A DNA stretch of 64,000 bases. It comes from Diplonema japonicum (taxonomy: Eukaryota > Protista > Euglenozoa: Diplonemea). Below, in pieces: positions 12,909 to 16,227 of the stretch. Numbering within the stretch: position 1 is the first letter of the stretch; every line of letters starts with the position of its first letter. The position numbers and the translations under genes are program-made. The notes beneath the pieces were generated by a model. The model made no database searches, was not told the origin of the DNA, and saw nothing but the letters and a program-made list of their open reading frames with translations. Location of the stretch: assembly GCA_964019335.1 (NCBI GenBank), contig OZ025699.1, positions 186,001 to 250,000 on the forward strand, given 5' to 3'.

Positions 12909-15170
12909 ATGTCGACCTCCAACAAGAAGAAAAAGAGGCCCGCTCACCACAAGTCCAGGACGGAAGAAATCCTGGAGAAAGCCCGCGGTGAGCGGGTAAA
13001 GGACAACGCCGCCGCCAGGGCGAAGCGCACGCGCGAGGAGGTGGAGAGGAAGCGCGCAGAGGGGGTCACGCCGGTGGTGACACCCTCCCCCGGGCAAGGG
13101 AAGAAGGCGGCCAGAAGGGCCAGACAGAAGGCAGCAGCTGCTGACGCTGCCACCGCCGCCGCCGCCGCTGCTTCGGGCTCCGACGACTCTGTCGTCTTAA
13201 TTAGCGAGTCGCCGGGCGTTGTCACCTCGTTCACGGTCGACACGCCAGAGGTCAGGAGGGCGAGGATGAGGACTGCTGCCGCCGACACCACTGCTCCTGC
13301 ACCTGCTGCTGCCAACACCACTGCTCCTGCACCTGCTGCTGCCGACACCACTGCTCCTGCACCTGCTGCTGCCGACTCCCCTGCTCCTGCACCTGCTGCT
13401 GCCGACACCACTGCTCCTGCGCCTGCTGCTGCCGACTCCCCTGCTCCTGCGCCTGCTCCAGCCTCTACTGCTGCCGTGTGGTCTACTGCCGTCCTCACTG
13501 CCGCTGCCTGCGACACCGCCCTCCCCATGTCGGACTCTGACACCGACGAGAAGAACACGGCCCCCGCTCCCGCACCGGCCCCGGAGCCTCACTGGGATCT
13601 GGTCCCCGACACGTGGGACGCCCCCATCTACACCAACACTGCTCCCCCTGAGGAGGTGCCCCGCGCCGTCGTCGCTCTCGACGACCTCCAGCAGGTGGAC
13701 GCGATTCGCACTGCGAGGCCCACGGCCTCCCTGACCTTCGTCCTCTTGACGGAGGTTGCCGGTTCGACCACCCCATGCACCGTCATCGTACTCGCCGGCC
13801 AGCGTGTCGTGCACAAGGCCGTGCACACCTTCTCGGTCGGGTCGAACCCCCCCTCCTACACCCCACTCGCTTCTTTCGATGGCGGCTCTGAGGTAGTGTA
13901 CGTCAGCGTGAAAGCTGACAGCGTGAACGCGGCGAAGGCCAGGGTTCGGGACCTCGTCGCGACCCAGGGCGTGGCGGTGGAGGAGCAGGCGATCTTCCGC
14001 CCGAAGAAGATCGACGGGAACGAGCCGCGGGCGCGGCACTGGAGCCACGAGGTGGGCCTGCGGCTCCCGGCGGCTTCCGTCCATGCGGTACTCCGGGCCT
14101 CGGGCGACGGCTGCATGGTCAGGACGACCGAGCGGCGCGGGGGGTACACCTACGTGCCCATCGTAGCGGAGGGGAGGGCGGAGGCCTTCCAGCTGGCGAA
14201 GGCACTGGGCGGGTTGTCCCTGGGGGTGGCCCATCGCAAGGGTTGGACCGTGAGGTGCCTGCCGGAGACGGAGCAGCGTCTGAGGGAGGCCCTCGCCAAG
14301 CAGAGGACAAAGCGACGGTACCTGCTCACCGGAGCCCCGCTGTCTGTTACCAGGGCAGCCTTCGACGGGATGATGGACCACATCGGTTGGAAGCCGTCGT
14401 CCATCATCCGACGCTCTGACACGGCGTTCCAGGGCACGAGGCAACTCGTGTTCTTCATCGTCGCCGACGCCCCGCCCCCCAAGGCCAGGACATGGCTCTT
14501 CGGCTCTCGTCTCGTTCGACTGCACGACGCGGAGGACCACCCGAGCGTCACGCTCCCGCCCCGCACCAACAAGAAGGCTCCACCCGCGGCTCGGACGCCG
14601 GTTGCGGCAACCACGGCCCAGACGCCGACGCCGGCCCCTGGCCCCACGGTGCAGTCCACAGGGCTGCCGAGCACCAATCCGTGGTCATCTCCACCGAGCT
14701 CTGTTGCCCCTCCGCCACTTGGCACTGTGACTCCGGTCTCCTCTGCGGCTTCCCCGACCACGACACCTCCCCGTGACTCCCAGAAGAAGAATCCCGCACC
14801 GGAACCTGAGGTCCCGGCGCTCCTCGCGCTGATCCAGTCGATGCAGGCGACCATCGACGGTCTGCAGGCGACGGTCCGCGACCTCCAGGAGAAGATGGCA
14901 GCGTCACTTGGCGCGCCGGCGTCATCTGCAGACGGTGCTGGGCGGACGGCAGTTGCTGGGAAGGGCAAGGGCGGCAAGGCTGGGTCCAAGGCAGGGACGA
15001 AGGGGCACCAGGCGCAGGGCGTAAGCACGCCAGGCCCCTACCCGACATCGACGGAGCAAGGGGGCGGAAGGGGACGCGCCCAGTCGCTGGCTGGCGACTC
15101 TGCTTCCCCCAACGGGGCCGGCCGTGGACGGGCAGCCTCTGTGGGCCCGGCCCCCGCCCCTGCCAATTGA
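12909..15170 (+). CDS. Family C1 ORF1 (753 aa; basic N-terminus, Ala/Pro repeats, RRM-like region, coiled coil)
   Basis: Long ORF directly upstream of, and in frame with, the APE ORF; homologous to 40991..41803. Confidence 0.85.
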   Translation: MSTSNKKKKRPAHHKSRTEEILEKARGERVKDNAAARAKRTREEVERKRAEGVTPVVTPSPGQGKKAARRARQKAAAADAATAAAAAASGSDDSVVLISESPGVVTSFTVDTPEVRRARMRTAAADTTAPAPAAANTTAPAPAAADTTAPAPAAADSPAPAPAAADTTAPAPAAADSPAPAPAPASTAAVWSTAVLTAAACDTALPMSDSDTDEKNTAPAPAPAPEPHWDLVPDTWDAPIYTNTAPPEEVPRAVVALDDLQQVDAIRTARPTASLTFVLLTEVAGSTTPCTVIVLAGQRVVHKAVHTFSVGSNPPSYTPLASFDGGSEVVYVSVKADSVNAAKARVRDLVATQGVAVEEQAIFRPKKIDGNEPRARHWSHEVGLRLPAASVHAVLRASGDGCMVRTTERRGGYTYVPIVAEGRAEAFQLAKALGGLSLGVAHRKGWTVRCLPETEQRLREALAKQRTKRRYLLTGAPLSVTRAAFDGMMDHIGWKPSSIIRRSDTAFQGTRQLVFFIVADAPPPKARTWLFGSRLVRLHDAEDHPSVTLPPRTNKKAPPAARTPVAATTAQTPTPAPGPTVQSTGLPSTNPWSSPPSSVAPPPLGTVTPVSSAASPTTTPPRDSQKKNPAPEPEVPALLALIQSMQATIDGLQATVRDLQEKMAASLGAPASSADGAGRTAVAGKGKGGKAGSKAGTKGHQAQGVSTPGPYPTSTEQGGGRGRAQSLAGDSASPNGAGRGRAASVGPAPAPAN
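13274..13465 (+). repeat. 30-bp coding minisatellite (AAADTTAPAP, about 6 copies)
   Basis: gctgctgccgacaccactgctcctgcacct units. Confidence 0.9.
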
Positions 15171-16227
15171 AGGGGTCCCGCTGAGCAGGGGGGGCGTCAG
15201 ATCGACGACCACGCCCCCTCTCCTGGTCTCCCGCGCATACAGCCGAGGAGACACCTTCCACATCACTTGTACGACGTCCTCCCTTCCTTGATCCCTTCCT
15301 TACTTGAACGGATGTCGGCCAGGGACCTGCTGGGGCTGCTTGGGCTGGTTGAGACGAACCCCGGTCCACCTAAGAAGCTCCCACCCCCGAAGCCGAAGGG
15401 ACTCAGGGTCCTGTCCTGGAACTGCAACGGTCTTGCCGCCAAGTGGTCAACCGTGTCCTACCACGCTGTCCTACTGACGCTGGATATCATTATGATCCAG
15501 GAGACACACCTTAGGGAGGGGCATGAGACATCATACCTGCCTGGATACACGTCCTACAGGAGGGACCGCACAACACCGGTGACGGACGGCTCTGCGACGA
15601 GAGGCGGTGGTGTCATCACGTATGTCCGTGACTGCCTTGCCTCGGAGGAAGCTCCTTTCGTACTCCCTGAAGGTGACAGTGTCACCGAGCGATTAGACGT
15701 GAGGATCTCCTGTGTGAAGCGCGTCCCGGTCACCCTCTCCAACGTGTACCTCACGCCTGTGAGTATAAGCAGAGGAACAAGGGACCCCGAGTACCTACGG
15801 CCGGGCAGCCTACCTGTGGGGAAGAACACGATCGTTGCTGGCGACTTCAACGCACACCACAGCTCTTGGGATGCCAAGGTGACAACGCCCAACGAAAGGG
15901 GGAACGTGGTCAGGGACTGGCTTGACACCCACGGCTACACGGTCTACAACAACCGTGACGAGCCGACGCGGGACTCACCGCCACGCGTTCTGGACCTGGT
16001 GGTGGGACGTTGTGCGGAACTGGAGCCGAGGACGTTGGGGACGTGGGGCTCTGATCACAGCCCGGTTTCCTTCCGCTTGCCGCTTGAGGACGCCTACTGC
16101 TCGGAGCGCCCCTGCCCTACCTGGAACTTCAAAAAGGCCAGGTGGGACGACTTCTCCGCGTCCGCTGCCGCCCTTCTGACCAAGATCGACACGAAGGGTC
16201 ACATTGACTCCTTCACGAAGGAGGTAA

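Follow-up and report, generated by a model that had tools for sequence, protein, structure and literature searches.

How do ribosomes reach the second open reading frame of a LINE when it lies in the same frame as the first, behind a single stop codon? The window (the whole 64,000-nucleotide stretch of Diplonema japonicum DNA analysed here) poses this question twice, in subfamilies C1 and C2 of a two-ORF APE-RT-RNase H LINE, family C, of this marine diplonemid. From the letters alone, the first-pass annotation had proposed two stacked recoding events at the junction, in which an in-frame UGA is read through and a 2A-like peptide then separates the products by StopGo. The stop itself, the spacer that follows it, the predicted RNA structure and the 2A-like peptide are considered here in turn, before the possible routes into ORF2 are weighed.

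The copies and their parts are listed in Table 1. The frame does run continuously across the C1 junction as had been read, but ORF2 is not intact there, with two insertions interrupting it in the window. The C2 copy does retain an intact ORF2 together with the junction, but it is 5'-truncated and the 5' part of its ORF1 is missing. C1 begins at an (AAAAG)n tract that adjoins another insertion. Both C2 frames have close counterparts in the transcriptome, with 277 of 282 residues identical between the ORF1 frame and protein P0176, and 1379 of 1382 between ORF2 and protein P0152. On C2 ORF2, Pfam places the APE domain at residues 81-296, RT at 568-803 and RNase H at 1100-1241. ORF1 matches no Pfam family above cut-off and no PDB sequence, and the core of the C1 protein is 69% identical to P0176. 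The structural model of C1 ORF1 is of low confidence (pLDDT 48) and among PDB entries it is best matched by tandem-RRM proteins (E 7e-4, TM 0.17), so that the weak resemblance of the core to tandem RRMs is a hint only. In a tree of 58 proteins, built with fast settings and a midpoint root and without the named ingi or L1Tc sequences, family C groups with D. ambulator P0153 (support 1.0) and then with families A and B of the window (0.84). No ribozyme family, the HDV-like ribozyme of the Pr77 promoter at the 5' end of Ingi/L1Tc elements included, reaches its Rfam gathering score anywhere in the 64-kb window.

Table 1. Family C features, in window coordinates
Feature	Position	Strand	Description
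C1 ORF1	12909..15170	+	753 aa: basic N-terminus, Ala/Pro repeats, folded core, coiled coil, disordered tail
C1 in-frame UGA	15168..15170	+	context AAU-UGA-AGG, within 13 nt that C1 and C2 share without a difference
C1 spacer	15171..15311	+	47 codons, no stops, no AUG in any frame; codon-level purifying selection
C1 predicted hairpin A	15187..15221	+	10 bp, starting 16 nt past the stop; z -1.85
C1 predicted stem B	15226..15252	+	6 invariant bp; weak
C1 first in-frame AUG and 2A-like peptide	15312..15368	+	MSARDLLGLLGLVETNPG, then P; Leu at the Asp position
C1 ORF2, first piece	15369..16221	+	APE domain; interrupted at 16221 by the insertion of a GIY-YIG/RT element
C1 ORF2, second piece	24533..25866	+	start of RT; lies between two insertions
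C1 ORF2, final piece	28784..30712	+	RNase H and Cys/His tail; stop TGA
C2 ORF1, 3' part only	40971..41803	+	5'-truncated copy; stop TGA at 41801-41803
C2 spacer	41804..41944	+	47 codons, no stops; one out-of-frame AUG at 41844
C2 predicted hairpin A	41820..41854	+	10 bp; two C1 G-C pairs replaced by A-U; z -2.45
C2 predicted stem B	41859..41885	+	6 invariant bp; weak
C2 first in-frame AUG and 2A-like peptide	41945..42001	+	MSVRDLLGLLGLVETNPG, then P
C2 ORF2, intact	41945..46093	+	APE, RT, RNase H and Cys/His tail; stop TAA
C3	53411..57332	+	98.8% identity to C2; truncated inside APE and thus without the junction; ORF2 stop TAA

As the first-pass annotation had it, ORF1 and ORF2 share one frame in C1 and C2, and a single TGA is the only stop between them. 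It was also right that TGA is otherwise a genuine stop, since C1 ORF2 ends with TGA where C2 and C3 have TAA. The same comparison rules out UGA as a general Trp codon, which is rejected as well by ORFs of 1148-2175 codons that contain 18-23 TGG and no TGA. Nor is the UGA an assembly error, because contigs from two of four sequencing runs bridge the stop and contain it. Among 24 runs, no RNA run carrying the sequence turned up, which has no bearing on expression. One of the bridging contigs (489 nt) has no differing letter and may be a source of the window; the other (5425 nt), from another study, has one in 836. Runs X13 and X14 cover only sequence from 41923 onward, downstream of the stop, and the C1-type spacer is represented just by its last 30 nt, as loose ends in two of the four runs. 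The D. japonicum Trinity gene DN2703_c0_g1 contains ORF1 ending at the UGA, plus ORF2, and the transcriptome ORF1 proteins P0176 and P0177 have 951-952 aa. Since ORF1 ends at the stop in this transcriptome, it is unlikely that the stop is constitutively edited or spliced out. The context is of the UGA-A type in both copies, and a 12-nt indel sits 5 nt upstream. The leaky contexts UGA-CUA/CGG and CAR-YYA are absent at both the C1 and C2 stops, and UGA-A in place of the alphavirus-type UGA-C counts against readthrough.

The spacer has the same length in both copies, 141 nt from stop to AUG, and aligns without a gap. Its peptides, and the synonymous ggt/ggc, gct/gca and gag/gaa changes between them, are as they had been quoted, and the claim that the spacer is kept as codons proves significant against chance. 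Between C1 and C2, dN/dS is coding-like, at 0.19 by counting (dS 1.13, against 1.07 for APE) and 0.22 by maximum likelihood (P 1e-4 against omega 1, likelihood test), and the other two plus-strand frames give 1.24 and 1.34 and both contain stops. When the same substitutions are relocated at random, 24 amino-acid differences are expected and 17 are seen (P 0.002), a value that stays at 0.002 with the stem positions held fixed; P is only 0.03-0.08 once local clustering is preserved, which counts against. In a control on non-coding alignments, none of 24 tests (4 windows by 6 frames, not independent) reached P 0.01. The coding-like pattern begins right at the stop, and all three changes in codons 1-5 are synonymous third-position ones; codons 40, 44 and 47 carry synonymous first-position changes. 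There are no indels over the 141 nt, against many in the ORF1 tail. The first 24 codons are 79% conserved, above the ORF1 tail, which was counted against readthrough.

The junction is known from two independent sequences only, C1 and C2. No third subfamily or relative with a junction was found among viral contigs, metagenome contigs and transcriptome proteins: the viral contigs contained no relative, and the metagenome contigs yielded 56 loci, all at or below 32% identity and none with the motif x[VI]Ex[NH]PG on the plus strand. The end of the spacer resembles the stretch that precedes the second Met motif of D. ambulator P0153 no more than chance would allow (P 0.42 and 0.73). On the other strand, long antisense ORFs span the junction in both copies; their frames differ, and none of the minus frames is open in C1 and C2 alike. 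Taken by itself, the sequence supports translation of the spacer in the ORF1/ORF2 frame, and it would fit readthrough of the UGA and a non-AUG restart at the stop alike.

A covarying stem downstream of the stop had also been described. A predicted hairpin A is indeed shared by C1 and C2, but the stem has 10 bp and begins 16 nt past the stop. All 10 pairs are kept in both copies and two of them are compensatory, which is not statistical support, as there are two sequences and 111 of 500 shuffles reach the same figure. Two of the amino-acid changes in the spacer result from these two compensatory changes. Pairings nearer to the stop vary between folds, the shared stem beginning at 16 nt, and the 92-nt region as a whole is not more stably folded than its shuffled versions (z -1.12 and 0.02). 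In a 230-nt fold, the pairs with p>0.2 in C1 and C2 alike do not include predicted stem B. A long-range helix that would pair +5..+16 with the 2A codons was rejected, being present in one consensus fold and absent from the pair probabilities of a longer window, as was an RNA signal in the nine identical codons over RDLLGLLGL, which chance explains (P 0.41). All Rfam matches at the junction are below gathering score. Known readthrough stems are described as starting 7-12 nt after the stop (PMC3159437, PMC13517186), and the mRNA entry channel as filled by 11-12 nt (PMC13517186). At 16 nt, hairpin A is farther away than these stimulators, which counts against readthrough.

The peptide DLLGLLGLVETNPGP is present ahead of APE as the first-pass annotation stated, but its core has Leu instead of the catalytically important Asp, a substitution that had been overlooked. 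GLVETNPGP ends 12 residues upstream of the APE motif, and LVETNPGP fits the consensus (D/G/C/N)(V/I)ExNPGP at seven of eight positions, p12 being the Leu. The 2A-like motifs of relatives (36 among 150) have Asp at p12 in 31 cases, Gly in three, Asn in two and Leu in none. Functional p12 variants have been reported with D/G/C/N and, more rarely, T and V, Leu not being among them, and when F2A and P2A were scanned, none of the D12 substitutions kept activity. The upstream tract has Gly at -8 and Leu at -13, -12, -10 and -9; in active 2A peptides Leu is enriched at -13 to -10. The 2A-like peptide is under strong purifying selection (dN/dS 0.05), and retrotransposon 2A-like peptides range in activity from none to high. 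Judged from its residues, skipping of the peptide bond between Gly and Pro is doubtful, and the odds that the peptide skips usefully fall somewhat short of even.

We favour, with a probability of about 0.57, the reading in which a minority of ribosomes read through the UGA, translate the 47-codon spacer and continue into ORF2, readthrough being the simplest entry into the spacer frame. Most ribosomes would terminate at the UGA and release ORF1p, which would provide the ORF1p excess required by the LINE particle. Occasionally a near-cognate tRNA would decode the UGA, probably aided by the conserved context and the predicted hairpin. At the 2A-like peptide, pausing with weak or partial skipping would be expected, and the products would be ORF1p, ORF1p extended by 66 residues with free ORF2p starting from Pro, and/or ORF1 and ORF2 fused and uncut. 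The AUG that lies 18 codons upstream of the skip site may also be used for some initiation. A scanning 40S would meet the hairpin in both copies and an out-of-frame AUG in C2, which counts for readthrough; that the in-frame AUG is retained in both copies counts against it. In all diplonemid relatives seen (families A and B, P0002, P0153) a Met stands 14 residues ahead of the skip site, which makes initiation at an AUG shortly upstream of the 2A look like the ancestral state. The part of the stacked proposal that stands is translation of the spacer, and its StopGo half is weaker for want of the Asp at p12. The full combination, readthrough and an active StopGo with a so far unreported Leu at p12, stacked within 66 codons, is rather unlikely.

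The codon-level selection would be accounted for equally well if ribosomes terminated at the UGA and then resumed in frame from a non-AUG codon at the stop or shortly after it, either AGG (codon 1) or AUC (codon 11). The spacer would then be the leader of ORF2p instead of a tail of ORF1p, and the downstream hairpin would help as in SART1. We consider this unlikely. It is true that the near-cognate AGG (codon 1) and AUC (codons 11 and 41) are kept in both copies, that relatives often have a leader of 56-114 residues ahead of the skip site, and that L1 ORF2 can reportedly start without an AUG. A hairpin some 14 nt downstream favours weak starts, but AGG is among the poorest of the near-cognate ones. 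Selection moreover seems to begin at codon 2, ahead of the AUC at codon 11, and a restart needs no common ORF1/ORF2 frame, yet both subfamilies keep one at dS about 1. SART1 is described as requiring structure downstream of its stop-start site (PMC3708506, PMC5972666), a point for restart.

Distinctly unlikely is a start of ORF2 at the conserved AUG (15312; 41945), by reinitiation after ORF1 or from a separate SL-capped mRNA, as is usual in Euglenozoa, with the spacer as an untranslated, conserved RNA element. The AUG is present in both copies, and families A and B have one just before a canonical 2A, with ORF2 in another frame, 464 and 562 nt past the ORF1 stop. The spliced leader is described on essentially all Diplonema mRNAs (PMC10161547), the second half of the spacer is pyrimidine-rich, AG is shared at +4, +79, +82 and +154, and the block-wise permutation P noted above also leans this way. 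However, such a start leaves the omega, the first-position synonymous changes and the absence of indels unexplained, and the selection signal persists without the stem positions. The AG that adjoins the AUG in C2 (+142) is absent in C1, the shared AG at +154 lies downstream of the AUG, and in C2 the out-of-frame AUG comes first.

Removal or recoding of the stop in a minority of RNAs, by UGA->UGG editing, a short intron or selenocysteine, would in each case yield spacer translation, and the AG at +4/+5 common to both copies could end an intron. It is very improbable all the same: ORF1 in the transcriptome ends at the stop, no in-phase GT donor is shared upstream, and selenocysteine finds no support, as Rfam gives no SECIS family match in the window or at the junction, a crude SECIS pattern has no match in any of the three 3' regions, and the C1 and C2 3' UTRs do not align. 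There is equally little chance that both subfamilies once had single ORF1-2A-ORF2 frames and that recombination has recently spread the UGA as a lesion common to them, in a non-functional junction: fused ORF1p-2A-ORF2p elements are described elsewhere (10.64898/2026.06.17.732966) and the stop is embedded in the 13-nt identical block, but a spacer dS equal to that of APE rules out recent exchange across the spacer, the upstream 12-nt indel lies close by, C2-type copies are young, as the C2/C3 identity attests, with the stop in the bridging contigs, and a fused ORF1-ORF2 protein occurs in none of 5481 candidates (weak evidence).

If the stacked recoding is true, readthrough would set the ORF1p:ORF2p ratio and StopGo would free ORF2p, making the junction a protease-free counterpart, in a LINE, of retroviral gag-pol expression, and an extant intermediate on the way from LINEs with two ORFs to 2A elements with a single one, such as ingi. 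The junction also bears on the proposal by Odon et al. that ORF1+ORF2 elements can turn into single-ORF elements by means of 2A peptides, and on whether Leu can replace Asp in a euglenozoan StopGo core. We found no published report of readthrough and a 2A together in a LINE. For LINE ORF2 translation from a two-gene RNA, the worked cases are termination-reinitiation (L1, SART1), and in the literature found, readthrough had merely been suggested, for Paramecium Group 3. The junction is directly testable because it spans 200 nt, comes in two natural forms separated by a dS of about 1, has transcripts in a Diplonema species known by name, and leads to different expectations under readthrough, non-AUG restart and AUG initiation.

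Readthrough polyproteins of the gag-pol and nsP3-4 type are processed by proteases and are not known to be separated by a 2A-like peptide. Gammaretroviral gag-pol, alphavirus nsP3-4 and Drosophila kelch are like family C in having one in-frame stop with a 3' RNA stem, an abundant upstream protein and a polymerase downstream, as this group is described in PMC3159437 and PMC13517186, and kelch pairs its stem with UGA-A readthrough (PMC3159437). Their stems are given at 7-12 nt, against 16 nt in family C, where no pseudoknot is evident. In the Candida albicans element Tca2 there is likewise one in-frame UGA with a predicted pseudoknot 3' of it, and pol is made from stop-carrying RNA, but unlike family C, Tca2 is an LTR element (PMC2194720). 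The Tca2 junction alone is reported to give no readthrough in yeast (PMC2194720), and such anatomy therefore does not prove mechanism. SART1 and mammalian L1 have bicistronic RNAs like that of family C, SART1 with a downstream structure and L1 with an inter-ORF spacer of 63 nt (PMC5972666). SART1 is described as overlapping its stop and AUG (PMC5972666), whereas in family C 141 nt separate the two and this spacer is under codon-level conservation.

Paramecium tetraurelia non-LTR Group 3 is an APE-type LINE whose ORF1 and ORF2 share a frame, and its consensus sequences led to the suggestion that the ORF1 stop is read through (PMC5405496). It belongs to a ciliate clade, and its description, in the parts available, does not mention RNase H, a selection test, RNA structure or a 2A (PMC5405496). 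LINEs of Cordylochernes scorpioides also have a 2A-like peptide between ORF1p and ORF2p domains, but as one continuous protein, with no stop described before the 2A in the material available (10.64898/2026.06.17.732966). The trypanosomatid ingi and L1Tc elements share with family C an APE-RT-RNase H ORF, a 2A-like peptide directly before APE, and a euglenozoan host (PMC3708506, PMC12278014). The Ingi clade is described there as lacking ORF1 and having DxEx(N/H)PGP, and family C differs from it in its 753-952-aa ORF1, its in-frame UGA, its 47-codon spacer, and the Leu that stands at the Asp position.

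The window holds a cluster of non-LTR retroelements amid tRNA-Lys, tRNA-Leu and 5S genes. Among them is family C, a two-ORF LINE with three copies, and since C3 is nearly identical to C2 and begins within the APE, there are only two independent sequences of the junction between ORF1 and ORF2. Of the 1382 residues of C2 ORF2, 1379 are identical in a protein from the Diplonema japonicum transcriptome, and the C2 ORF1 frame matches another at 277 of 282, which makes the host this species or one almost identical to it. The top matches of a low-confidence structure model of the ORF1 core (pLDDT 48) are tandem-RRM proteins (E 7e-4, TM 0.17), a hint that the product may be an ordinary LINE ORF1p. 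The element interrupting C1 ORF2 has an ORF of 2175 codons, with N-terminal GIY-YIG and RT matches that are both below cut-off, and its three copies (two of them inside C1 ORF2) are 98-99% identical. It is similar to Penelope-like elements that carry their endonuclease at the N-terminus.

Features of family C and neighboring elements in the window
Feature	Positions	Strand	Remarks
C1 ORF1	12909-15170		ends at UGA 15168-15170; ORF2 in same frame
C1 ORF2	restarts at 24533, 28784		two interruptions by GIY-YIG/RT element
C2	UGA 41801-41803; ORF2 to 46093		5'-truncated within ORF1; ORF2 intact, with APE, RT, RNase H
C3			98.8% identity to C2; begins within APE
(AAAAG)n, ~630 nt, perfect	12276-12908		immediately 5' of C1 ORF1 AUG; similar tract after the motif at 5300
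GIY-YIG/RT ORF	16222-24531, 25861-28768, 61645-64000	-	
Block of families A, B	35307-35434, 48329-48460		5' of ORF2 AUG, 3' of A-rich tract
Element with GIEPHPGP	9693 (ORF 7762-9786)	-	upstream ORF 10535-12055
39-nt leader	59850-59888	+	
39-nt leader	about 12274-12236	-	
GTGGAA-(TAT)n-A-run	5300, 33891, 40188, 40926, 58817, 59808		5' side of tRNA-Leu at 58817; elsewhere 5' of element 5' ends
Repeated unit, 230-370 nt	31243-31652, 46334-46559, 57550-57774, 61058-61433		after several element 3' ends; terminal poly(A) run

The first-pass annotation had proposed that readthrough and then StopGo link ORF1 to ORF2, with a spacer conserved as codons and equal in length. The spacer does measure 141 nt from the stop to the first in-frame AUG in both copies, aligning without gaps, and its dN/dS by counting is 0.19 over codons 1-48 (C1 vs C2, dS 1.13), compared with 0.10 in the APE (dS 1.07) and 0.44 in the 3' part of ORF1. 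The other two plus-strand frames, both of which contain stops, give 1.24 and 1.34. A codon model sets the spacer omega at 0.22 (P 1e-4 against neutrality), and when its 41 substitutions are relocated randomly, 24 amino-acid changes result against the 17 observed (P 0.002). Holding the stem positions fixed also gives P 0.002, and confining the permutation to blocks of 9, 15 and 21 nt gives a weaker signal (P 0.037, 0.078 and 0.026, respectively). Control tests on non-coding alignments (4 windows in 6 frames, a fifth region pair being too similar to give a test) reached 0.01 in 0/24 cases and 0.05 in 1/24. An open frame by itself is unsurprising here, with a chance of ~0.3 per copy. It is likely that the spacer is translated in the frame shared by ORF1 and ORF2.

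The UGA separating the two ORFs is, as had been claimed, the single in-frame stop in each copy, and TGA is otherwise a true terminator: C1 ORF2 ends in TGA where C2 and C3 have TAA, and ORFs of 1148-2175 codons contain 18-23 TGG and zero TGA. Contigs, in which rare variants are lost, bridge the C2 stop in two of four public runs. One spans 489 nt with zero differing letters, from a run that is possibly a source of the window, and the other, from a separate study, is 5425 nt long with one differing letter in 836. Two ORF1 proteins, 951 and 952 aa long, come from Trinity gene DN2703_c0_g1, and the fully read one terminates at the junction stop. The gene also gives an ORF2, called from AUG, of 1383 aa; the label 'i3.p2' hints that one isoform carries a second ORF.

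Translation of the spacer would require ribosomes to be placed in frame on codons 1-47, 5' of the sole in-frame AUG, and readthrough of the UGA would be their route. We put the probability of this mechanism at slightly under 0.6, and prefer it because it needs the fewest assumptions and accounts for the retained common frame. A non-AUG restart at the stop predicts the same selection pattern in the spacer, and is a distinctly less probable route. A shade less probable again is reinitiation at the AUG, or production of ORF2 from a trans-spliced mRNA. This is usual in the group (PMC10161547; PMC5972666), but leaves the codon pattern of the spacer unaccounted for. Editing, splicing or selenocysteine at the stop is very improbable, and so is a relic stop. 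A Blastocrithidia study (PMC12153298) offered no information on how diplonemids terminate translation.

Of the covarying stem described ~18 nt after the stop, the stem survives, and the covariation falls short of statistical support. A 10-bp hairpin folds in both copies at +20 to +54 (the U of UGA being +1), with pair probabilities of 0.5-1.0. Two pairs are altered on both sides between C1 and C2 and account for two amino-acid differences of the spacer peptide (G/E and R/Q); on these two sequences 111/500 shuffles equal the covariation. Folding z-scores in the two copies are -1.85 and -2.45 for the hairpin alone, and -1.12 and 0.02 for the 92-nt region. A predicted RNA structure after the stop is plausible, though a modest one. 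Known readthrough stems are described as starting 7-12 nt after the stop, against 16 nt in family C, and the usual context as UGA-C, kelch being an exception with UGA-A (PMC3159437; PMC13517186).

The 2A-like peptide placed before the APE is strongly conserved, with a dN/dS of 0.05 over the 19 codons following the AUG (C1 vs C2), but its core, LVETNPGP, is degenerate, having Leu at the usually Asp position p12. The expanded core is given as (D/G/C/N)(V/I)ExNPGP, with T or V at p12 rare but active (PMC12846837), and a scan of F2A and P2A is reported to lose activity with every D12 change (10.64898/2026.09.24.754024). Leu at p12 occurs in 0/36 motif-bearing proteins among 150 related ones. In a midpoint-rooted tree of 58 proteins (nine chosen rows, the rest being those with lengths of 1200-1800 aa), family C groups with a D. 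ambulator element as its sister (support 1.0), and next with LINE families A and B of the window (0.84); since all of these have Asp, Leu is derived in family C. In favor of the peptide, its Gly at -8 and Leu-rich tract match active peptides. The standard core is reported in only two-fifths of the active 2A peptides of one screen (10.64898/2026.06.17.732966), and a D-to-Q variant as active in suitable context (PMC3708506). Separately, residues 1-125 of P0153, a D. ambulator transcriptome protein, carry three tandem NPGP/HPGP motifs flanking a truncated APE start, with His at the Glu position of their cores. The arrangement reflects a tandem insertion or else a chimeric assembly.

In families A and B, ORF2 lies in a different frame from ORF1, 464 and 562 nt past its stop, with a conserved structured block ahead of it that follows an A-rich tract. 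Relative to the skip site, which is canonical in A and B, their Met stands at -14, as does that of the D. ambulator relatives, compared with -18 in family C. AUG initiation near the 2A thus looks ancestral, and the translated in-frame spacer looks like a family C innovation. An 11-bp stem, one of whose pairs is compensatory, closes the block itself (~127 nt, 83% identity), which contains two GGCCGGCC motifs that could pair. Its family A copy has no Rfam match at E 10 except a weak snoRNA match elsewhere. The ORF2 frame is open across both copies (pS 0.30, pN 0.16, not significant) and the others are stopped; the block may be an IRES-like element or ribozyme. A further element, presumably RTE-like, has a Met-proximal 2A-like motif ending in GIEPHPGP, 5' of its APE, and its upstream ORF has a weak OTU-like match (E 0.006).

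The window also contains two copies of a 39-nt leader, which we take to be the diplonemid spliced leader. Two inserted elements carry such a 39-mer at the 5' end, suggesting retrotransposition of complete, trans-spliced element mRNAs. The six GTGGAA motifs suggest a single kind of insertion site for the elements, immediately upstream of Pol III genes. The 230-370-nt repeated unit, which has no Rfam match at gathering score, is possibly a SINE or small-RNA gene.

The family C junction is a real feature. Among the titles and abstract openings listed in the literature searches, none described a stop together with a 2A at one LINE junction, or comparable diplonemid elements. Tca2 has a similar anatomy and shows that it can mislead (PMC2194720). 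Readthrough between in-frame ORFs has been proposed for Paramecium Group 3 (PMC5405496), and a 2A between ORF1p and ORF2p is described in a pseudoscorpion element (10.64898/2026.06.17.732966). Ingi-clade elements are described as having the 2A and lacking ORF1 (PMC3708506; PMC12278014), whereas family C has both.
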